Positions 9,639-56,696 of a stretch of DNA of 64,000 nucleotides are shown here, piece after piece (positions within the stretch are counted from its first letter, which is position 1; every line of letters begins with the position of its first letter). A program made the translations under genes and the position numbers. This DNA comes from a phage. The stretch lies in NCBI GenBank assembly GCA_038314665.1, contig GCA_038314665.1_3677.1. One strand, 5' to 3'. The notes below the pieces were generated by a model. That model saw only the letters and a list, made by a program, of their open reading frames with translations, ran no database searches and was not told where the DNA came from.

Positions 9639-9656
9639 TTTCTTAACTAAACTATC

Positions 9657-9685
9657 AGGGGCTTTAAAAGGCCCCTTTCTTTTTG
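9657..9685 (+). terminator. rho-independent terminator
   Basis: GGGGC-TTTAAAAG-GCCCC hairpin followed by TTTCTTTTTG. Confidence 0.7.
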
Positions 9686-10292
9686 TCTGTATTTCTCCTA
9701 CCACAAACGGCCCCACCTGGCAAGTGGAATAATTGACTAGCCATCAATCCCACACACTGTACAAACATACATGTAAAATAACTATTGCATAATTTTTCAT
9801 TGTGTGGTAGCAGGGCCATTTTTACCCGTTTTCTCTCTCAAAATTGCACGTAATGCCGCTATTGCACAAAATTTAACCTGATGCATATCTTCAATAGCTT
9901 GTCAACAACTAAAAATCTTTATAAGTCATACACTTACACACTCACAAAAGCGTGTTCTACGTGAAAAATCGAGTATAACTATAGCCGCCAGATCTCAGAA
10001 TTTACGTACGTTCACCATTCTATAGTCTGCTAAGTATTTATTCCAACCATAGAATAATGGAATAGTCAATACCTGCATAAAATAATTATTCGTATAAACT
10101 GCATAACATAAATCAGCTTAGGTGTCAACATTTTTCGTAAACAGCCTGAAATTATCACGGTGAGTTATCATAAACAGAGAAATCTTTAGTCGTCTAATGT
10201 TTACTGTACATTACTATACTTACTGGAATCATTAGATGACTAAGAGAAAGATAAGAAATAATTAACAATACAATTATTTTATATGTAACAAT

Positions 10293-10483
10293 AAGGCAAC
10301 TATGCAAACGAATGGCATGGCGCGACGGAGTCGCGACATAATATAAAAGCAGTAACCATCACCCCCGTGATAGTTTGTCTGCAATCTATTAATCAGATCA
10401 TAGTTGCCTTGTATTTAGTTAATCATGACATAACAAGCAAGGCAACTATAGATCTGCTAATAGTTGCCCTGCTTTTATATTAT
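10293..10483. repeat. nested inverted-repeat / hairpin cluster
   Basis: GGCAACTAT and ATAGTTGCC alternate four times; 15-bp inverted repeat ATAATATAAAAGCAG / CTGCTTTTATATTAT; palindromes CGCGAC..GTCGCG and GTGACTAAAGGTCAC; flanked by 20-bp direct repeats ATGCAAACGAATGGCATGGC (10303) and ATGCAAACGAATGTCATGGC (10609). Confidence 0.6.
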
Positions 10484-10629
10484 GTCATAGAAACACCCGA
10501 AGGGGTGACTAAAGGTCACCTGGCATAGCCAGTGAAAGATTATTAACCTGCTAATTGTCAGCTTATTGGCTGTTAGCTTGTCAATTGTTAACTTGTTAAT
10601 TGTTATCATGCAAACGAATGTCATGGCTT

Positions 10630-10800
10630 ATCATTTTTGTGTAAACAGTCAATCATGTAAATGATAAGTATGTGAACAGTTATCCATGTAAACTATTAGA
10701 TATGTAAACTATCGGTTATGTAAACAGTAAGAGCGTGAACAGTAAAGGGAGTGAATAGTAATAGCGTGAATAGTGACAGCGTAAACAGTCAGGCATGTCA
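10630..10800. repeat. tandem degenerate short repeats (ATGTAAAC / GTGAACAGT / GTGAATAGT units)
   Basis: at least ten units, roughly 11-14 bp period, visible by eye; non-coding. Confidence 0.6.
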
Positions 10801-11363
10801 ATTATGTTTAATGTGCCCAGTATGTCAAAGGTGTCATGTTATGTCACTATTGTGTCAGACAAGTTTTTCTCCTCTTTGTCAAGTGCTGCATGAAAAATTT
10901 ACAATCTGGTATGGTAGCATTTTTGCGGCCCTGTTTACATTCAGTTGTGTATGTATAATCCTTGTTGTGCGGGCGTTTGGACGTCTAGATGGTTGGAAGT
11001 CTGCAGGTCAATATCTAATCTATCGGCTGTTAACTATATCCCACACAAATAGTAAGAAATATAATTGTTATATGCGTAAACAGTAACTCATGTTATCAAT
11101 CCCTGTATGTATCGCCAGTGGTGCGCATAATGGGTATTATGTTAAATTGCCCGTAATGATAACTATTCTCACAATGATAGGTATTCTCATTCAATCCCAC
11201 AAGATAGGTTGCAAATGTTGTGCCACTGTGTGAACGGCCTCACCTATTAATTTGCCACACTGCCCCGATATTTGAGAATTGTTATAAGAATGAGAAGTAT
11301 TCCCATTTCGTCCGCCTGGCAGCACTCCAGTCGCTACCGCTTATGACAGGGCAGAGCTAGACC

Positions 11364-11512
11364 CTCTTCAGATATTTCTGGCTGACTCTTCAGGTCTGTG
11401 TGGGAAAAGCCAATCTCTCCGGCGGCGGGGAGGGGGTCAATTAAAAAATTTATGTGGTGTATGAAGCGCTCTTCAGGTAAGGCATGTATTATGGGATGAA
11501 ACCCTCTTCAGG
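11364..11512. repeat. cluster of CTCTTCAGG motifs
   Basis: copies at 11364, 11386, 11469 and 11504, with further copies at 11894 and 12544; interleaved G-rich GGCGGGGAGGGGGT (11421) and CCCGGCGGGGCAGGGG (11566). Confidence 0.5.
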
Positions 11513-12253
11513 TGATGATATTTGTGGGTGTGATATTTGCTGGAAAGTCAGATATGACGGGACTCCCGGCGGGGCAGGGGTAGTACAGACAGGGAAAATA
11601 TGGGGATGTAGTTGGGGAAATTGATCAGACAGGTGGAGTATAGTATATGTTACAAGTATGTTAAATAGAGAGGTTTAATATCTGTAAGATTTGTGTGTAA
11701 AATCAAAGACTTAAGTGGTGTTGTGGTATTTTCTATAAATAATTCAAGTTTAATAGGGAATATTTGTCAGAAAGGCAGGTTCAGGTTATTTAAAGTGGTA
11801 TTTCAGATGCATGTTTACAGAAGCAGGTAACCCCCCTCCCCCTTCGGCTACCATTCACCTTTTCCTCTGACTGGTACTTAAACACTTATTCAGACTCTTC
11901 AGGTTATCACCCATATATCATATGGCAGTGACTGGTGTCCTCCGGCCCCTCTTTCGTCACCCGTCCGCTTCGCCATGCTAATGCCATAGCCAGTGGTTCG
12001 GTTGTTCACCCTGTTCACTCAGGTGTATCTCCATACCCCTTCAAACCGAAGAGAACAGAAAACCCGAATTACTCGGTAAAAGAAAAGAGAAGAACTTAAT
12101 TTTATCAGGATAGGCAAGAATGTCAAGGCATGACTGCTCACTAAACAAGCAAACAGTCATGTGTGGGAGGTAAGTGATTGTGGTGGTAGGAAATTTAGTT
12201 GAAAGATGTGTTATGGGTGCTCCCAGCACTTTAGCCGGGCAATTAATTGTGTG

Positions 12254-47846: not shown

Positions 47847-48608
47847 TTACAGTTCCATAAAGTTTTCTACAGTTTCAATAAATTCTTTATCAGAGAAAGC
47901 GTCAACAGCACCGTTAAACCATACAGGGATCCCGCGATCCTCATATTGATAAAGGTCGCTACGTGAAATGCCACTTCCATCTGCACTCTGCGAATCATAC
48001 TTGTTTACAATCAGCAGTTTTGTGCCTTTACAAGTAGCAGGAAACAATTCCCAGTTAAAATTAATAACTGTGTTAGAACAACCTACCAGGATCACCATAT
48101 CATTGCTGGTAAGAGATGTCAACAGGTCATACATGTCTGTATACTTAGGAGCAACCTCACCGAAGAACACTACATTGGGCTTAACCCAGGTATACTTGCC
48201 TGTATCTACCTCAGTGTATCCGATATTTTTAATTACATCATTACCTTCAGCATCTTCGTAGGTGATTTCAGGCAAATACCCGTGGACATGTAAAATATCT
48301 TCATGTTTTACACCAGCACGCTCCAGCAAATCATCTACATTGGTAGTAAGGTTGATTACACGACCAGACCAGCGGGAATACCACTCAGCGATCCGAAGAT
48401 GTGCAAGGTTAGGATCAACACTGCCAAGAGCTACACGACGTGCATTGTAAAAGTCATGCACCTTATAGTAGTTCTTGGCAAAGGTGTGGATATTGCACAC
48501 CTCATCGATGCTGAAATTCTCCCACATTGCAGTGCTACCAGATCGGAAAGTGGGAATACCAGATTCAGCGCTCAAACCAGCACCGGAGATAATAATCAGT
48601 CGTCGCAT
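47847..48608 (-). CDS. Sir2-family NAD-dependent deacylase / ADP-ribosyltransferase-like protein (253 aa)
   Basis: Sir2 motif ISGAGLSAESGIPTFRS. Confidence 0.65.
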   Translation of the reverse strand: MRRLIIISGAGLSAESGIPTFRSGSTAMWENFSIDEVCNIHTFAKNYYKVHDFYNARRVALGSVDPNLAHLRIAEWYSRWSGRVINLTTNVDDLLERAGVKHEDILHVHGYLPEITYEDAEGNDVIKNIGYTEVDTGKYTWVKPNVVFFGEVAPKYTDMYDLLTSLTSNDMVILVGCSNTVINFNWELFPATCKGTKLLIVNKYDSQSADGSGISRSDLYQYEDRGIPVWFNGAVDAFSDKEFIETVENFMEL

Positions 48609-48616
48609 AAGTGTCC

Positions 48617-48967
48617 TCAGTAGATGTTTTGTTTAATCTCTATTCCAAACTTCTTGAATGAGTCAGCAGCAAGCATAAATTTACGAGCTGCCGATGGATT
48701 AGAAGTATGCACGAAAATAATCACGTTGTCAATAAGTGGTGGCTTTCCGAATACAAGTTTCTCCTCTAGCGCAGAGAAGCAGTCGTACCCTTCAAACACT
48801 TCACCTAGATCATTGTCAAAATACCACTCAGATACGCGTCTGTAGAGCTTTCTCTTATCATTAAGAAAATCCATAAACTCAGAAGAATTCTTTAGCCACA
48901 GAGCGTCTGGGAGTCCATAATCTGACGGATCTCTAAAATCATCAAGCCACACAATCCACTTCTTCAT
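48617..48967 (-). CDS. hypothetical protein (116 aa)
   Basis: coupled ORF. Confidence 0.45.
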   Translation of the reverse strand: MKKWIVWLDDFRDPSDYGLPDALWLKNSSEFMDFLNDKRKLYRRVSEWYFDNDLGEVFEGYDCFSALEEKLVFGKPPLIDNVIIFVHTSNPSAARKFMLAADSFKKFGIEIKQNIY

Positions 48968-49899
48968 TGCATATAGTCCTCGTTGTGGAAATAGTAGTCC
49001 AGTATCTCACGACGCTCCTGCTCTAATAAGCAATTCCACACATCTTCTGTATAGTTGCTACGAATAAATTTTACCATACCGTAAAACTCTTCGTCAACAC
49101 GTTTAAAGATATCATCATCCCAAATCTTCCAAGCTTTACCCCTCATTACGGCCTTCCGTGCCAGATAGTATGGAGACTTGATCTTCAGCTGCAGATCATA
49201 AGGGTAGTAAGGCTTACGAATCATATACCCTTCACCTCTTGTTTCTGCAGCTAATTCTTTTGCATAGCTGAACGGAATTTCACGCACAGTGTGAGGACGT
49301 TTTGCACCAAGGTATTTGGCAATCCCATCTAAAGCTGCTTCTGGTAGCATTATTCCAGAATCATTATATCTGCAACCTATCAAATATGCGCCATGATCTT
49401 CCTGAACAATATGCGGATCTGAAGGGTGGCAAATTTCAAACATGAATGTCATGTTTTCATTGCCCATAACCTTCTTGATAAGATCTAAATTACCACATTG
49501 CTCCCTGATGGTTTCTTTTGCGAGGTTACAATATGGGGAATCAAGAGACCCGGTTGTTGAGAACAACAGTTCACCTTTATGAGATGATACCACACCGAGG
49601 AATCCGTTCTTTTTCTCTACCGCAGTAACAAGTTTACTGTCCGGTAGGTTGGTGGAGTTTTCTCCTAAGTTGAATACTTTTGTGAAAGGCCATGCCACAA
49701 CATTCCCCTCATTGCCAACAACAATACCTCGGCACTCCAGTAAACGCGGAGACAAATGCCACAGATTGTTGTAGAATACTTTTCTGGCATATTTATAGAT
49801 CTTTAATCCAAGATCTGGATAATACCGACTGGTTACAAGACCTTTGTCTACTAGGTCATCTGCATTAAAATACTTCATCATACGTTCCTCATTTGTCAT
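48964..49899 (-). CDS. RNA ligase, T4 Rnl1-like (311 aa)
   Basis: LLECRGIVV and EKKNGFLGVV resemble T4 RnlA ALECRGIMF and the KEDGSL adenylation motif. Confidence 0.6.
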   Translation of the reverse strand: MTNEERMMKYFNADDLVDKGLVTSRYYPDLGLKIYKYARKVFYNNLWHLSPRLLECRGIVVGNEGNVVAWPFTKVFNLGENSTNLPDSKLVTAVEKKNGFLGVVSSHKGELLFSTTGSLDSPYCNLAKETIREQCGNLDLIKKVMGNENMTFMFEICHPSDPHIVQEDHGAYLIGCRYNDSGIMLPEAALDGIAKYLGAKRPHTVREIPFSYAKELAAETRGEGYMIRKPYYPYDLQLKIKSPYYLARKAVMRGKAWKIWDDDIFKRVDEEFYGMVKFIRSNYTEDVWNCLLEQERREILDYYFHNEDYMQ

Positions 49900-49999
49900 T
49901 TTGTCAGTCTATCTTGCCACACAAATAACCTAGTGTCAACACTTGAAATTAACAAAACAGTTAGGTATACTATCATTAAAATTAAAACGGAGGATTGCT

Positions 50000-50410
50000 A
50001 TGTCTAAAATGCTATATATCGTGCGTGGTCTGCCAGGGTCTGGCAAATCAACACTGGCAAATGCGCTATCTTTAGAAGGCCTGTATCCACATTTTGAGAA
50101 CGACATGTTCTGGTATGACGATGACGGCAATTACAACTGGGATGCAAGTAAAGTAACACTCGCAGCAAAATGGTGCAAAGATAACGTAGAAGATATGATG
50201 CGTATGGGATACGACCGTATCGTGGTAAGTAATACGTTTACAAAAGAAAAACATGTGCAGGAATATGTTGACATGGCAATCAGTCATGGGTATAGTTATA
50301 CCGTGATCGTGGTTGAAAACCGCCACGGTAATAAAAGCATTCATGATGTTCCAGACAAGATTGTGGATCGTATGGAACGCCAGCTTAAAAACTGCATTAA
50401 ACTTAAATGA
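50000..50410 (+). CDS. polynucleotide 5'-kinase domain protein (136 aa)
   Basis: start taken at the ATG with GGAGG RBS; P-loop GLPGSGKST as in the T4 Pnk kinase domain GCPGSGKST. Confidence 0.65.
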   Translation: MSKMLYIVRGLPGSGKSTLANALSLEGLYPHFENDMFWYDDDGNYNWDASKVTLAAKWCKDNVEDMMRMGYDRIVVSNTFTKEKHVQEYVDMAISHGYSYTVIVVENRHGNKSIHDVPDKIVDRMERQLKNCIKLK

Positions 50411-50417
50411 GGAATGT

Positions 50418-50972
50418 ATGAAATACTTTGTAACAAGCGATACGCACTTTCTCCACCAGCGGGTCATGGAGTTTGAGTCATGTCAAAAACACAGATCTCA
50501 GTATGATCACAATCTTGATAGTATGAATGCTGGAATCATCACCGAGTGGAACTCTGTTGTGTCACCTGCAGACACTGTGTTCCACCTGGGAGATATTGCG
50601 TGCACTAATGATAAGAATATCAACAACTTACTTCCAGATATTCTAAATATGTTGAACGGACATATTATTCTTGTTCGTGGCAACCATGACACAAGAACGA
50701 CTGTCAGAATTATGAAAGAGTTCGGTCATGAGGTTGTAGATTATTACGAGCTTCGCCACAACAAGAATTTGATCTGTATGAGCCATTACCAGTTTGCAAA
50801 GTGGAACAGAAAGCCTCACGGATCAGTCCAACTGTTCGGTCATGCTCACGGAACCACACAACAGTTGTTTGGCAGGCAGCTTGATGTCGGTTGGGATGTG
50901 TGGGGGAGACTCTTACCATTAGAAGAGGCATACCGTATTGCAATGAGTTTTGATATTGACAGCAGGGAGTAA
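50418..50972 (+). CDS. calcineurin-like metallophosphoesterase (184 aa)
   Basis: start taken at the ATG after AGGAA; DxH...GD...GNHD metallophosphatase motifs. Confidence 0.6.
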   Translation: MKYFVTSDTHFLHQRVMEFESCQKHRSQYDHNLDSMNAGIITEWNSVVSPADTVFHLGDIACTNDKNINNLLPDILNMLNGHIILVRGNHDTRTTVRIMKEFGHEVVDYYELRHNKNLICMSHYQFAKWNRKPHGSVQLFGHAHGTTQQLFGRQLDVGWDVWGRLLPLEEAYRIAMSFDIDSRE

Positions 50973-51019
50973 TCCCTGCTATTTTAAAGAAAATTGCCAC
51001 ACAAGGAGAATCAGGAGAT

Positions 51020-51370
51020 ATGAAAGATGGGGATAAGCTGCTATATCTTAAAGTCCCCCTTGAAATACTATCTATGTCAAAAGTTTTGAATGACACAACT
51101 GGGGAGGTTGTTGTTCTTGACTTGTATGACAAGATTGTATACTGCTACCTGCACAACTGGTATAAGCTTGGAGGAAATTCACACTTCACACCAAGCACAA
51201 GGAAAATTGCAGCAGATGTTGGGATAAAGAAAACAAAAGCAGCAGCGTGCGTTAAAACTTTAGAATGTGCAGGAGTTGTTGAAACATCCACACAAGGGAG
51301 AGGTAAAAGATGCACATTTTCCAAAGTTTTGCCACCAGAAGAAGTTATTCGAATGTCAACAACTGGTTAG
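51020..51370 (+). CDS. putative DNA-binding protein (116 aa)
   Basis: helix-turn-helix-like STRKIAADVGIKKTKAAACV; lies just upstream of the iteron array. Confidence 0.45.
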   Translation: MKDGDKLLYLKVPLEILSMSKVLNDTTGEVVVLDLYDKIVYCYLHNWYKLGGNSHFTPSTRKIAADVGIKKTKAAACVKTLECAGVVETSTQGRGKRCTFSKVLPPEEVIRMSTTG

Positions 51371-51444
51371 ACCAGTAAAAACTTAAATATCTGTACTATA
51401 AGTATTTGTATGTTTTATGTTCACCATGGAACAGAAACTATTAA

Positions 51445-51526
51445 CTGTCCGTGATACGGACACTACTGCCCGTCACGCGGACACATCTGTCCGTAATACG
51501 GACACTAACTGTCCGTGATACGGACA
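51445..51526. repeat. four tandem 21-bp palindromic iterons (CTGTCCGT-N3-ACGGACAC)
   Basis: units at 51445, 51466, 51487 and 51508, followed by an AT-rich palindromic stretch to about 51660. Confidence 0.7.
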
Positions 51527-52030
51527 CATAAAGAATATAACTAAAATAACTAAATAATAAAAAATAAAAGATCTAGTACTTATGGTACTAAGTACATATA
51601 CTTAACTTATGTAGAATATACTAGATCCTAAGTACCATGTTTTAAATTTATTACTTTCTATAGGTAGTGTCGGCCCTTCATTGGCACTCGCCTACGAGGG
51701 GCGAGATGCCGGGCCTCCATAGTGCACACAATAACAGAAGTGCATACATGCAGGTCTGTTAACATGTGTGGGAGCGAAGCGATAGCGCAGGCCAAAGGCC
51801 GAGCACTAATGTGGACCACCGACGAAAGCTTGCCAGCGCCGTAAGGAGTCGGTTGAGAGCCTCCAGCGCGAGTTTGGATAAAGTTTATGTGTGGAAACGG
51901 ACAATGAGGCCCCTAAATCGCTCCACAGCCATATAAACTATACCAAGTAAGGCAATCGCACCAGTTTGATAGAAAAGCTCGTTACAAAGCGATACAGTGA
52001 GTTTTTCTATAACTTGAAGAGGAGGCAGCT

Positions 52031-52609
52031 ATGAGTCCACGCAAAGATGACCGTGAAAAGATTGCAAAACGTTATCAGAATGAAGAGCAGATGGAGAAAA
52101 CTTTCAAGTGGAAGCCAGGTTTCCAGCGTAATCATTCTAACGCTCGTGATCGTAAGCATCCGGATAAGTGGTTAACACCGCCAAATGATGGCATGCAGGT
52201 TGGTGATGAGAAGGAGCTGTCACCTGGAAAAGATGGCAACTACATTCGCACTAAGGAAGCAGGTCCAAAGGATGACAGCTATCTTGTAGATAAGGTTCTT
52301 GATGGTATTGATGTAGATGTTGACACTGCACGAAACCTTTTTCTTGGTTGGTATCGTACAGGGTTTTTCGACATCAAGGCTATTCGTCGTGTTTGCGATA
52401 TTAAAAAGTCTGCCTATGATGATGACTCTCTACATCGCACTCTGAGACAATACTCAGAGAGATACGGTCATCCAGTTATCACTCTTGACGATATTAACGA
52501 AGTGATGTATCATGCAGAGGTTGTTGCAGGTAGATTCGGTGATGCATATTTCAGTATTCTTTCTGCAAAAGATGAGGTAATGTTAAATAAGATTTACCAT
52601 GAACGCTGA
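52031..52609 (+). CDS. hypothetical protein (192 aa)
   Basis: ORF with GAGGAGG RBS. Confidence 0.55.
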   Translation: MSPRKDDREKIAKRYQNEEQMEKTFKWKPGFQRNHSNARDRKHPDKWLTPPNDGMQVGDEKELSPGKDGNYIRTKEAGPKDDSYLVDKVLDGIDVDVDTARNLFLGWYRTGFFDIKAIRRVCDIKKSAYDDDSLHRTLRQYSERYGHPVITLDDINEVMYHAEVVAGRFGDAYFSILSAKDEVMLNKIYHER

Positions 52610-52619
52610 GGAGTGCTTA

Positions 52620-52808
52620 ATGAACAACCCGGTAGCAAAGAACTGTAATAAGTTCAACAAGTCTGCAATTCACACTGACAGGAAAAAGAGCTGGTCTCCT
52701 GACATTGACGAGGAGCTTGAGAGTTACTTTGAATACCTGGTCACTAATGCAGATGAGGTTGCGATTAAAGAATACGCAGACAGGAAGGATAAGGCCGGAA
52801 TCTGTTGA
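52620..52808 (+). CDS. hypothetical protein (62 aa)
   Basis: start taken at the ATG after GAGGAGTG. Confidence 0.4.
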   Translation: MNNPVAKNCNKFNKSAIHTDRKKSWSPDIDEELESYFEYLVTNADEVAIKEYADRKDKAGIC

Positions 52809-52884
52809 CAAAAATAGTGTTACCTGATAAGATCTGCAATATGATGTGATGCAATTTTAACTTACGAGGTCTACAGGTAATGCT

Positions 52885-53127
52885 ATGTTTAAGGTTAAGC
52901 TCGTTTTTCGTTCCATGAATGAGGATTATTTAGAAGATGAAGGTGAATTTCGTGCACTGGATGATGCAATAGATTTTGCCAACGACTTAGCTTGTATGAA
53001 TACAGGTTATGGGCTATGCTGTTGGGATGGTGGTGTTCAGATCGGTGATAGCAAGATCTTCTACTTCTACCCTGAGCCTGATAACAAACAAATTAAGTAT
53101 GTTTTATTTATTTGTGCTTTACAATGA
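52885..53127 (+). CDS. hypothetical acidic protein (80 aa)
   Basis: ORF with RBS. Confidence 0.5.
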   Translation: MFKVKLVFRSMNEDYLEDEGEFRALDDAIDFANDLACMNTGYGLCCWDGGVQIGDSKIFYFYPEPDNKQIKYVLFICALQ

Positions 53128-53416
53128 GGTTGTTTTCGTGTATCATGATGAATATCCAATTTAAAGATGAATTTGATGGCTTTATCTCCGGATGCTTTGA
53201 AACAGGGTTCGGAGAAGACTGAGTTCCCCTTAGAGGGCTTGATAGTGCACCACACTTAAAATGGTAGGGGCAGCCAGCACATGACGATGTGACCCCAGCC
53301 AACCTGTAACAAGGTCGAGCCGAAGCGCGGGTAATAGGCCTCTGGTAACCCACTTGTTGGGTCTTGCTGGTCCAGGACGCTGGACAAGTCGCAGGGAATA
53401 CCACCCTGCGGCGAAC

Positions 53417-53445
53417 TTGACAATCAGTATTTGCTATGATAAAAT
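53417..53445 (+). promoter_or_regulatory. sigma70-like promoter (TTGACA-N17-TAAAAT) with palindrome TATCACGTGATA downstream
   Basis: upstream of the CDS at 53474. Confidence 0.55.
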
Positions 53446-53473
53446 CCACCTATCACGTGATAATGGAGGAAAC

Positions 53474-53812
53474 ATGGCGGATACAACTAAAAAGCGTCGC
53501 CGTAGAGGCAGACCTCTGAAAGAGGAGTCCAACGCCATTCAGCTAGAGAAGAACATCCTTGATATGAAGGAATCTTTTATAGCGATGGTTCCAGAAGCTC
53601 ACAAAGTTTTAAGAGAGCTGATGTTGGACCCGAAAACCAAACAAAATATTCGTCAAAGCATTGCAGAGTATGTTCTTGATAAGGCAGACCGAATGCAGGA
53701 AGAATATGATGAGATGTTTGGTGAAGAGGAAGAGGTGGTAGTAGAAGAGGCTGAAAAACCAGCACCTTTTATGCCATTTACCACAGAAATACAGCCTGTT
53801 AGCAATAGCTAA
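53474..53812 (+). CDS. hypothetical protein with N-terminal basic patch KKRRRRGRP (112 aa)
   Basis: ATG after GGAGGAAAC; ORF track extends upstream to 53354. Confidence 0.5.
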   Translation: MADTTKKRRRRGRPLKEESNAIQLEKNILDMKESFIAMVPEAHKVLRELMLDPKTKQNIRQSIAEYVLDKADRMQEEYDEMFGEEEEVVVEEAEKPAPFMPFTTEIQPVSNS

Positions 53813-53821
53813 AATATTTTC

Positions 53822-53850
53822 TTGACAAACTTTGCTTAACAGTGTAATAT
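53822..53850 (+). promoter_or_regulatory. sigma70-like promoter (TTGACA-N17-TAATAT) for the tRNA cluster
   Basis: about 60 nt upstream of the first tRNA. Confidence 0.6.
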
Positions 53851-53908
53851 TGTAAACATGGTCTCCCACCTTTTCTGGCGGCTAAGGTGTAAAAGAAAGC
53901 CACCCAGT

Positions 53909-53983
53909 GCCCTGTTAGCTTAGTGGATAAAGCAGCGGCCTTCTAAGCCGTTGACACTGGTTCGAGTCCAGTACGGGGTGCCA
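53909..53983 (+). tRNA. tRNA-Arg (anticodon TCT)
   Basis: manual cloverleaf: acceptor GCCCTGT/ACGGGGT, anticodon loop CTTCTAA, T-loop TTCGAGT, encoded CCA. Confidence 0.75.
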
Positions 53984-54113
53984 AGTTCTTTTTAATGTAG
54001 CTTACTTTAGCAGAGTAAATCTTCGGCAAGTGGCGGTAACCACTTTACCGATACCTCATAGTTAGTGGTGAGAACACTAGCTATTTTAAAAAGAATTTAA
54101 ATATTAGTATTTA

Positions 54114-54201
54114 GGTGAGTTAATTCCGTAGGGGTAGCGGGGCAGACTGTAAATCTGTTATCATTGCGATTCGGGTGGTTCGACTCCATCACTCACCACC
54201 A
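54114..54201 (+). tRNA. tRNA-Tyr (anticodon GTA)
   Basis: acceptor GGTGAGT/ACTCACC, anticodon loop CTGTAAA, long variable arm, CCA. Confidence 0.8.
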
Positions 54202-54315
54202 AATTTATATTTTTAAATGCATAAATCATACAGATAATGGCATTGATATTTATCGTCGTTTATACTAGTCACTAACTGCTCGAAAATCAGTGTCATTATC
54301 AGTATAATTTATAAA

Positions 54316-54406
54316 GGAGGGTAGGGAGCAATGGTGCTCAAGCGGTCTTGAAAACCGTCCCATTGAGGATGACTCGATGATGGTTCGATTCCATTACTCT
54401 CCGCCA
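54316..54406 (+). tRNA. tRNA-Ser (anticodon TGA)
   Basis: acceptor GGAGGGT/ACTCTCC, anticodon loop CTTGAAA, long variable arm, CCA. Confidence 0.75.
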
Positions 54407-54504
54407 CATTGTTGACCTTGTAATTAAGCGAAAGCCGGAAGCAGAACCGGATTATCAAATGTTACAGTCGTCATCGCCGACTAGCAACATGGTCAACATA
54501 CTGA

Positions 54505-54603
54505 GCTAGGTAAGCCCTTTGGCAAGGGCGAGGATTTTTAATCCTGAAAATAGACGAGGTAGTCGTTGAATACATAGGTGGTTCGATTCCACCGCCTAGC
54601 ACC
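54505..54603 (+). tRNA. atypical tRNA-like gene (99 nt), anticodon possibly TTT
   Basis: acceptor GCTAGGT/GCCTAGC and T-arm GGTGG-TTCGATT-CCACC are clear; loop TTTTTAA on a short stem; about 30 nt between anticodon arm and T-arm. Confidence 0.4.
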
Positions 54604-54608
54604 TTTTT

Positions 54609-54684
54609 GCTGATGTAGCACAATTGGCAGTGCAATTGATTTGTAATCAATAGGTTGCAGGTTCAAGTCCTGCCATCAGCACCA
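54609..54684 (+). tRNA. tRNA-Thr (anticodon TGT)
   Basis: acceptor GCTGATG/CATCAGC, anticodon loop TTTGTAA, T-loop TTCAAGT, CCA. Confidence 0.8.
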
Positions 54685-54685
54685 A

Positions 54686-54760
54686 GGCCCTGTAGCTGGA
54701 AGGTTCAAGCAAGCGACTCATAATCGCCAGACGGTGGTTCAATTCCACCCAGGGCCACCA
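54686..54760 (+). tRNA. tRNA-Met (anticodon CAT; elongator Met or Ile2 type)
   Basis: acceptor GGCCCTG/CAGGGCC, anticodon loop CTCATAA, CCA. Confidence 0.7.
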
Positions 54761-54771
54761 AATGGTAAATA

Positions 54772-54848
54772 CTCCGCGTAGCTCAGCTTGGTAGAGCGCC
54801 TGATTTGGGATCAGGAGGTCGAGTGTTCGAATCACTCCGTGGAGACCA
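54772..54848 (+). tRNA. tRNA-Pro (anticodon TGG)
   Basis: acceptor CTCCGCG/CGTGGAG with C1-G72, anticodon loop TTTGGGA, T-loop TTCGAAT, CCA. Confidence 0.8.
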
Positions 54849-55952: not shown

Positions 55953-56377
55953 TGTCTAAGATTTACGGACCGTGTTCTGAAAAGCAGAAGATGATCCTAG
56001 AAAACGATGCAGATATTTTGGTAATCGGAGGTGCCGCAGGGTCTGGCAAGTCGTTCCTCTTGCAGTTGATGCCACTTAAAATTATTGATGACCCCCACAG
56101 CTCTGTGGTTATGTTCCGAAGAACAACCCCACAGTTGGAAGGTGAGGGTGGACTATGGCCTAAAGCAGTAGCTATTTATAGTGATCTGCCTGAAAACATT
56201 AAGCCAAAGTTCAGAGAGAAGGATCATAAGTTCATTTTTCCACGGTTTGATCCGAACACTGGTAAGTGGGATAGAAGCAAAAAGGGGGCTGTTGTAAAAT
56301 ACTGCCACATGGAGTATGTACAAGATAAGCTTAACCACCAGGGGCTTGAGTACACCATGGTTTGCTTCGATGAGGGT
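55952..56377 (+). CDS. terL: terminase large subunit, exon 1 (ATPase N-terminal part)
   Basis: Walker A GGAAGSGKS and Walker B MVCFDE; ORF ends at the UAA that begins the intron. Confidence 0.8.
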
Positions 56378-56696
56378 TAATTTGTAGCTCTCGTAAAACC
56401 TCCCTAATTGCGGGGAAATCTTTATTATTGACACCACCAACCTGTTATGGTAACATAATAGAGGCTTCGAAGAGAGATCGAAGGTATGGTAACAGTGTGT
56501 TAATTTAGATAATCCGCAGCGAAGCATCCGATAGGATGAACGTTCAACGACTAGTCGAAAGACGTAGAATCAAGCGATTCGAAACGGGAGGGTAAGCGGT
56601 TGTTGTCGCTTATAAGATATAGTCTGGTCTGCATGGAGACATGCAGCTGCCTGAAAATGGCGGGGCAAGACTAGCGACCTTGCCCGAACATAAACG
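56378..56696 (+). other. group I self-splicing intron (IA-like, no ORF) in the terminase large-subunit gene
   Basis: P-like AATTGCGGGGAAA 56406-56418, Q-like AATCCGCAGC 56511-56520, R-like GTTCAACGACTAGTCGAAAG 56542-56561, S-like AAGATATAGTCTGG 56614-56627; guide GCTCTC 56387-56392; ends in G. Confidence 0.8.

Follow-up and report, generated by a model that had tools for sequence, protein, structure and literature searches.

The origin of bacteriophage lambda consists of four dyad-symmetric initiator sites, an AT-rich tract and a palindrome, and lies in a transcribed early region. In RepA_N plasmids the iterons are usually located inside repA, and the C-terminal domain of the plasmid RepA_N proteins, like that of the RepA protein of the PLE satellites, is thought to recruit the replication machinery. 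The iterons of the Vibrio cholerae PLE are required for replication, and its RepA, whose N-terminal domain is the protein of PDB entry 4RO3, belongs structurally to the RepA_N family (Barth et al. 2020, PMC7145576); PLE1 has three semi-palindromic repeats of about 30 bp, and RepA and the origin co-vary between PLEs (PMC8263062). For the Escherichia coli phage rV5 the origin could not be defined, every change of skew coinciding with a change in the direction of transcription (PMC3606486). Here we describe, in a 64,000-nucleotide stretch of phage DNA (contig GCA_038314665.1_3677.1, hereafter the window), a gene for a 116-amino-acid (aa) winged helix-turn-helix (wHTH) protein followed by four phased palindromes and by the most AT-rich tract of the window. 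The best reading of positions 50983-51668, with a probability of roughly 0.55, is that they form an iteron-type replication-origin cassette of Vequintavirus, and the locus is, from comparative evidence, the best candidate so far for the replication origin of the rV5-like phages. An origin had been proposed at this place in an earlier note on the same DNA.

Region 50900-52100 matched 119 phage records at 90-99.5% identity, all of them Vequintavirus (rV5-like E. coli myophages), with phiWec193/196 and LL12 as the best-matching records; by these matches the window is identified as DNA of an rV5-like coliphage. The locus is a 660-bp intergenic region (51371-52030) between the 116-aa open reading frame (ORF) on its left and a 192-aa ORF on its right. 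Some of the records annotate the repeat array, as “repeat_region” only.

The array (51442..51527) is made up of four direct repeats of 21/22 bp, the proposed iterons, each of which contains a 17-bp palindrome (TGTCCGT-N3-ACGGACA, half-site TGYCCGY). The palindromes start at 51446, 51467, 51488 and 51510: units 1 (51446-51462) and 4 (51510-51526) read TGTCCGTGATACGGACA, unit 3 (51488-51504) reads TGTCCGTAATACGGACA, and unit 2 (51467-51483), which reads TGCCCGTCACGCGGACA, is degenerate, with 2 mismatches. All four tandem units of the earlier note were located (51446-51526), though with start-to-start spacings of 21, 21 and 22 bp (about two helical turns between centres) and not of exactly 21 bp; its inverted 8-mers around an N3 spacer hold as a dyad, but one of 7+3+7, the outer C...C of the 8-mers being direct and not inverted. 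An iteron origin is expected to have at least three tandem phased copies of its site, and four are present. With up to 3 mismatches, 8 matches to the palindrome were found in the window (1.64 expected; 8 was reached in 0 of 100 shuffles), the three exact copies all lie inside the array, and the Tandem Repeats Finder (TRF) score of the array (110-128) is the highest in the window. In the complete 137.6-kb genome of a relative (C12), the four array units are the only copies of the palindrome at up to 1 mismatch.

The array is 94-98% identical across seven vequintaviruses, as against 77.5-88.7% identity to relatives for the spacer between the stop codon and the array (51371..51441), the least conserved piece of the locus. 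In Aya, the most divergent relative, the array (94%) and the AT tract (93%) are better preserved than the wHTH gene (87.5%). Variation within the sites is found at half-site positions 3 and 7 (T<->C) and is generally uncompensated across the dyad, with the exception of unit 2 in Aya, which favours recognition of the TGYCCGY half-site by a protein over selection for a hairpin. The promoter scan, outside which phage-specific promoter types lie, found no sigma-70-like site overlapping 51442-51527; the -10-like element nearest to the array is 85 bp away, and the spacer carries a promoter-like site on the minus strand (51423 to 51395; TGAACA-17-TATAGT).

The AT-rich tract, the proposed DNA-unwinding element, follows the array directly (51528..51660) and agrees with the “about 130 bp” of very AT-rich sequence first noticed: it has 133 bp and 80.5% A+T, compared with 57.4% for the window overall. 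It ranks first in the window for A+T at 60-, 100- and 130-bp scales, and contains the least stable 100 bp of the window (-102 kcal/mol, compared with a mean of -132.5 and a standard deviation of 6.2, i.e. about 4.9 standard deviations away). In the complete C12 genome, too, no stretch of 100-130 bp is richer in A+T than this tract, which again adjoins the array there; its identity across the seven vequintaviruses is 93-98%. Both the A+T and the stability calculations thus place a predicted unwinding element next to the sites, as in an iteron origin. The tract has an A-rich half (51528-51569) and an inverted-repeat half (51570..51638) with nested repeats containing GATC and GTAC and with two GATC sites: GATCTAGTA (51570-51578) pairs with TACTAGATC (51619-51627), and ATGGTACTAAG (51582-51592) pairs with CTAAGTACCAT (51628-51638). 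The palindromes reported here at first reading are present, but only as short and modest ones; the single-stranded DNA fold is not significant (z = -1.3), and a cruciform was rejected on that ground.

Two further short elements were found in the tract. On the minus strand, positions 51562..51574 read GATCTTTTATTTT, the sole exact match in the window to GATCTnTTnTTTT, which is the consensus of the E. coli oriC 13-mer; this single 13-mer and the two GATC sites carry little weight because there are no DnaA boxes. On the plus strand, sequence comparison revealed a -10-like element (51610..51617; TGTAGAAT) with no recognisable -35, which was not reported by the sigma-70 scan and is common to the rightward TTGAC(T/A)-17-TAGAAT promoters of phages GAP31 and VIK251.

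The wHTH gene (51020..51370, plus strand; rV5 ORF79) encodes the proposed site binder and initiator. It is labelled in the records as “putative transcriptional regulator”, “DNA-binding protein” or, in RefSeq, “replication initiation protein”, a name which appears to derive from family similarity alone. The helix-turn-helix-like protein predicted at 51020-51370 was confirmed as winged-helix by Pfam (DUF6945, PF22182, slightly over threshold; HTH_36 slightly under) and by an AlphaFold2 model built from a 17-sequence multiple sequence alignment (single-sequence pLDDT 45), in which it forms one wHTH domain, with the extended winged-helix fold of the DnaD N-terminal domain (NTD), and no further domain. 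Compared with PDB sequences, the protein matched 4RO3 (E 1.7e-5), and the profile of the 17-sequence family gave 4RO3 at E 6.7e-14, the next entry being at 3.6e-4. On both sequence and structural grounds, the 116-aa protein is a member of the family of the PLE RepA NTD (DUF6945, PF22182): a homologue of the DNA-binding domain of a proven initiator, consisting of that domain alone.

Relatives of this protein are few. A full HMMER scan of 1.84 billion representatives gave fewer than 10 (about 8) distant ones, nearly all of them with HTH_36 and/or DUF6945, a word-indexed protein search added none beyond these, and tblastn found the 116-aa protein in the 119 Vequintavirus records only. Pfam RepA_N (PF06970) did not match the window protein at E <= 1, although a distant relative (P0024) reached it at E 0.035; PLE RepA itself was assigned to RepA_N by structure, not sequence. 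No match to Phage_rep_O (PF04492) was found for the window protein either, and the GAP31 homologue gave E 0.017 and 16 bits, below the cut-off of 28.7.

Some of the homologues have features missing from the window protein. P0008, P0011, P0014 and Aeromonas phage 4L372D_060 (L016 2396-2782) have an acidic tail ending in D/E-x-P-F (EAPF, DTPF, DAPF or EIPF). The C-terminal tip of the single-stranded DNA-binding protein (SSB) is DDDIPF, and the resemblance of the tails to this tip hints that some DUF6945 members recruit SSB-interacting replication proteins. Another homologue, P0013 (228 aa), has a GIY-YIG nuclease domain fused to DUF6945, a combination that resembles ICP1 Odn, the origin-directed nuclease copying PLE RepA specificity.

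Protein and sites were found exchanged together in a metagenomic vequintavirus-like contig (L022). Both of its flanks are 88% identical to the window (L022 694-1270 matches window 50408-50982, and L022 2135-4457 matches window 51669-53984), but the gene between them encodes a protein of 143 aa whose identity to its window counterpart is only 27% (BLASTP E 3e-6). By hhalign the two are members of one family (probability 96%, E 2.4e-9), and the 143-aa type is absent from GenBank phages. From the stop codon of this gene on, L022 carries five unrelated 22-bp palindromes (TCTGATRCA-N4-TGYATCAGA), spaced 31, 33, 55 and 22 bp. In the window, the unit exchanged runs from 50983 to 51668. It comprises exactly the wHTH gene, the array and the AT tract, with the GC-rich element left outside it. 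Since the three are swapped together, with a divergent homologue and different palindromes, protein and sites co-vary as one cassette. It is very probable, judging from these comparisons, that the 116-aa protein binds the array: the earlier proposal of this protein as iteron binder is supported by the cassette exchange and by the restriction of the site to this locus in C12.

Other DUF6945 genes, too, have two or three phased semi-palindromic sites nearby, at distances of 22-23 bp from one another and bordering on AT-rich tracts, a layout seen in GAP31, VIK251, Henunavirus, L017 and Aeromonas phage 4L372D. Seunavirus GAP31 and Henunavirus have two 20-bp units of the TCAATTTGAG(C/T)ATAGGC family, 23 bp apart, and the pair in Mydovirus VIK251 is the same, detection there being as an inverted repeat. 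Next to the sites, each of the three genera has a 60-75-bp A/T tract containing AAAAGATCT, which also recurs in the corresponding tract of L019. In the metagenomic phage L017, an AT-rich stretch comes after three CAAGGGTCA-N4-TTG sites with spacings of 23 and 22 bp, and 4L372D has two sites 22 bp apart followed by about 170 bp of extreme AT.

The wHTH gene is preceded by a sigma-70-like promoter (50956..50985, plus strand; TTGACA, an 18-nt spacer, TATTTT and an upstream TG), with 10/12 matches in the promoter scan, at the same place where the rV5 record annotates the sigma-70 promoter “P76”. The left boundary of the cassette is at about 50983 (L022 homology stops at 50982), and transcription from this promoter probably reads through the cassette. 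Transcription is known to assist opening at the lambda and T7 origins. From these data we infer the following course of initiation. The early-expressed 116-aa protein, a stand-alone homologue of the N-terminal DNA-binding domain of RepA_N-type initiators, would bind the four 17-bp palindromes as dimers; the spacing of about two turns would place all the dimers on one face of the helix; the nucleoprotein array would stress the adjoining 133-bp, 80%-AT tract until it opens, possibly aided by read-through transcription from the upstream sigma-70 promoter; and the phage's own replisome would then load on the opened tract, making it the start of replication. The replisome genes of rV5 encode a T7 gp4-like primase-helicase, a Pol A polymerase and a PIF1/RecD-like SF1B helicase.

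The rival that survives best, possible though rather unlikely, is a transcriptional operator array, in which the four palindromes would serve as operators of the wHTH protein, acting as repressor or as activator, and would have no role in replication. The controlled promoters would be in the AT tract: either TGTAGAAT, reading rightward to the GC-rich element and the gene for the 192-aa protein, or an antisense promoter reading leftward. The conserved TGTAGAAT at 51610-51617 may indeed be a promoter element, the protein has no C-terminal domain, and the sister genera give this alternative further support. Seunavirus, Mydovirus and Henunavirus have two sites only, between a -10-like hexamer and the ribosome-binding site (RBS) of the wHTH gene; the homologue heads a wHTH-prs-nadV operon, so that the position of the sites is operator-like, as for an autorepressor, and these homologues score weakly on Pfam “wHTH-PRTase_assc”. 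In the window, by contrast, the sites neither overlap nor flank a recognisable promoter: the array is 3' of its own gene, its end is 85 bp upstream of the nearest -10-like element, and no recognisable promoter is occluded. The site is confined to one locus in the genome, the only strong solved homologue of the family is an initiator domain, ten orders of magnitude above any regulator, and four to five phased sites beside the most AT-rich stretch of the genome exceed the needs of an operator. Vequintavirus, moreover, is without the prs/nadV NAD-salvage genes that the sister genera carry at the equivalent junction; it has lost the operon, yet keeps and expands the site array.

An origin is preferred over an operator on these grounds: a phased dyad array, far above chance and restricted to a single locus in a complete relative, contacts the most AT-rich stretch of the genome; the gene for an initiator-type binding domain is adjacent, and all three are exchanged as a cassette; the sites overlap no recognisable promoter, and the module is kept without the prs/nadV operon. 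The position of the array 3' of its own gene and the better conservation of array and AT tract (93-98%) than of the spacer (77-89%) point in the same direction. The two readings are not mutually exclusive, because initiators of this class often autoregulate.

Several points weigh against an origin. The protein is a bare DNA-binding domain, without a domain to recruit the helicase, and no partner was identified. Exact DnaA boxes (TTWTNCACA) and IHF sites (WATCAANNNNTTR) are absent from 51300-52050, as are Fis sites; host-factor sites of the DnaA and IHF kind are not universal among origins. Phages with T7-like replisomes can start replication from transcripts, with no initiator. In L022 the AT-rich part is weaker, and the array does not adjoin it. 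Both in the window, where it falls at 49958, and in the complete C12 genome, the global minimum of cumulative GC skew coincides with the divergent strand switch and is 1.5 kb away from the array; this position fits an origin where replication and transcription are co-oriented but is not independent evidence, as skew at the locus is inseparable from gene orientation, which the rV5 paper had noted (PMC3606486). The literature search gave no coverage, 2D-gel or origin-cloning data for any vequintavirus, and nothing relevant on a Vequintavirinae origin, iterons, transcriptome or marker frequency, or on DUF6945.

A second non-coding, repeat-rich and AT-rich region (about 9640-12250; 2.6 kb) is a competing site for the origin. 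It has no ORF of at least 70 aa except one with a GTG start (10751-11086), and contains, besides dispersed repeats, TRF arrays at 10571-10605, 10686-10725, 10723-10789 (15-bp unit, 4.4 copies) and 11155-11189; positions 10195-10294 are the second most AT-rich 100 bp of the window (79%). Its position coincides with the maximum of cumulative GC skew, and its conservation among vequintaviruses is 91-96%; it could serve as another origin, as a terminus or as a regulatory hub.

A more detailed version of the origin proposal, which we regard as distinctly unlikely, can also be formulated. A RepA_N-like protein reduced to its NTD would be the origin-recognition factor of a large virulent Gram-negative myovirus; the phased four-dimer complex would melt the AT tract, and the SF1B or gp4-like helicases would come without an initiator C-terminal domain (CTD). 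The downstream GC-rich transcript would possibly act as an R-loop or primer, and lineages would swap the specificity cassette much as replicons are exchanged in the PLE-ICP1 system, with origin-targeting nucleases or satellites perhaps as the selective force.

Less probable again is that the initiator-like domain serves another site-specific DNA transaction, the array being a decoy, handcuffing or exclusion element directed at the origin of a rival satellite or of a phage infecting the same cell, or a recognition site for packaging or partition. ICP1 Odn, which fuses a RepA-NTD-like domain to a nuclease and cuts PLE iterons (PMC8263062), sets a precedent, a GIY-YIG+DUF6945 protein (P0013) is among the distant homologues, and the exchange of specificity cassettes is typical of arms races. 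A complete vequintavirus genome (137.6 kb) deposited as an E. coli “plasmid” hints at episomal carriage. The cognate sites are, however, on the phage's own genome, beside the gene, and conserved in 119/119 vequintavirus records; no candidate target sequence was found in 5,426 E. coli genomes, and the wHTH gene is in the early nucleotide-metabolism region and away from terminase, the public records starting elsewhere. The deposit in question is PLSDB record CP057073.1 (137,565 bp), non-mobilizable and from cattle faeces; it may reflect a carrier state, episomal persistence or contaminating phage in the culture. This phage genome was the sole plasmid match, and no related DNA was found in the 5,426 E. 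coli genomes.

Least credible of all is an RNA or DNA hairpin element, that is, tandem hairpins in the 3' untranslated region of the wHTH mRNA (REP-like stabilisers or a terminator) or cruciforms. In its favour, the array folds strongly as a single strand (-24.8 kcal/mol, z = -6.5), lies just 3' of the stop codon and is probably part of the transcript that starts at the upstream promoter. Against it, the array has no T-run (0 terminator-like sites in a scan of 49800-52700) and no Rfam family match, and its variants at half-site positions 3 and 7 break pairing and are uncompensated except in unit 2 of Aya; a terminator or REP-like hairpin was rejected for the missing T-run and the mostly uncompensated variants. 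L022, moreover, pairs different palindromes with a different DNA-binding protein, pointing to protein recognition.

Outside the cassette, the AT tract is followed by a GC-rich element (51661..51960, continuing to 52030; plus strand), in which L022 homology resumes at 51669. It is nearly invariant, forms strong local hairpins (e.g. 51672-51715), folds as RNA with z = -3.6 on the plus strand vs. -2.5 on the minus strand, and may be a structured non-coding RNA or a 5' leader; compensatory pairs on the plus strand are few, and G.U pairs many. A global structure was rejected as unstable: the consensus changes on adding L022, and few pairs covary. Rfam gave nothing credible for the intergenic region at gathering or permissive thresholds, the stray matches being rli43, with a score far short of its gathering value, and eukaryotic RNA families that scored no better than chance. 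The reading frame annotated here as rV5 ORF78 (56 aa, 51766-51936) is uninterrupted in 7 genomes; because most of its substitutions are non-synonymous, it was treated as non-coding. The 192-aa protein encoded downstream (52031..52609, plus strand; PHROG 12226) was considered as the missing initiator C-terminal domain and rejected: it has no Pfam or PDB match, and no wHTH fusion was found among its homologues. A homologue with 50% identity occurs in a different context.

Other features were recorded further from the locus. The strand switch is flanked (window 47847-50972) by an RNA-repair-like gene set: a Sir2-like protein, a T4 Rnl1-like RNA ligase, an AAA_33 P-loop kinase (polynucleotide-kinase-like) and a metallophosphoesterase. 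In Phapecoctavirus Schickermooser (L012 833-1311), a phage of a related subfamily, the divergent strand-switch region is likewise extremely AT-rich and contains an imperfect inverted repeat of 56 nt as well as CTAGTAC/GAGTACA repeats similar to the GATCTAGTAC motif of the window; no wHTH homologue was found among the genes flanking the Phapecoctavirus strand switch. Downstream on the plus strand, a tRNA cluster (53909-54848) contains Arg-TCT, Ser-TGA, Thr-TGT, Met/Ile2-CAT and Pro-TGG, an unusual tRNA-like gene of 99 nt for which a 4-base anticodon was called (54505-54603), and, at 54114-54198, an Rfam tRNA match that ARAGORN missed and that relatives annotate as tRNA-Tyr. A group I catalytic intron (56368-56646, plus strand) matched Rfam RF00028 over the full-length model (84 bits).

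The rV5-like phages, widely isolated, have found use in E. coli O157 control and in therapy collections, and their origin has never been defined. A cassette of about 690 bp with a predicted binder makes the origin question directly testable, and a defined origin would be of use in engineering the genomes and in designing phagemids or reporters that replicate. The locus would extend the PLE RepA/RepA_N fold, described as rare in Gram-negative systems, to a virulent coliphage subfamily and in single-domain form, and it documents the exchange of initiator-plus-site cassettes in otherwise collinear genomes. As an iteron-type origin with a RepA_N-like binder it would be of a kind already known, the single-domain initiator and the cassette exchange being unusual; if the protein is a regulator, the array would be an ordinary operator array of modest interest.

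The closest functional parallels of the locus are the PLE RepA/ori pair and the RepA_N plasmid replicons, with lambda ori as a parallel in layout. PLE RepA (PDB 4RO3) has a homologous DNA-binding domain but continues into a C-terminal domain, the window protein being confined to the NTD; the PLE origin has three sites of about 30 bp vs. four 17-bp palindromes on a 21-22-bp pitch in the window; and PLE is a satellite, the window locus being part of the phage's own genome, with function tested experimentally for PLE only. The RepA_N plasmids of Firmicutes (pSK41, pTZ2162; PDB 4PQL, 4PT7, 5KBJ, 4PTA) belong to Gram-positive hosts, and the window protein has neither a PF06970 match nor their two-domain NTD+CTD architecture. 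The GAP31_179-type repressors of wHTH-prs-nadV operons are of the same family as the window protein (BLASTP E 7e-6, shared DUF6945), and their cognate repeats likewise adjoin an A/T-rich tract with AAAAGATCT, but they have two sites upstream of the RBS, compared with four sites 3' of the gene and no prs/nadV operon in the window. The AT-rich regions of P1 oriR and E. coli oriC resemble the window tract in its two GATC sites and its 13-mer (GATCTnTTnTTTT), but the window has a single 13-mer and no exact DnaA boxes or IHF sites. The comparison with lambda ori made in the earlier note stands for the layout, with four tandem dyad sites followed by an AT-rich tract and a palindrome, all within a transcribed early region, but not for the protein, which is no relative of lambda O (no Phage_rep_O match): lambda ori is inside gene O, and O has a C-terminal domain recruiting P-DnaB, whereas the window array is 3' of its gene and the protein has no CTD.

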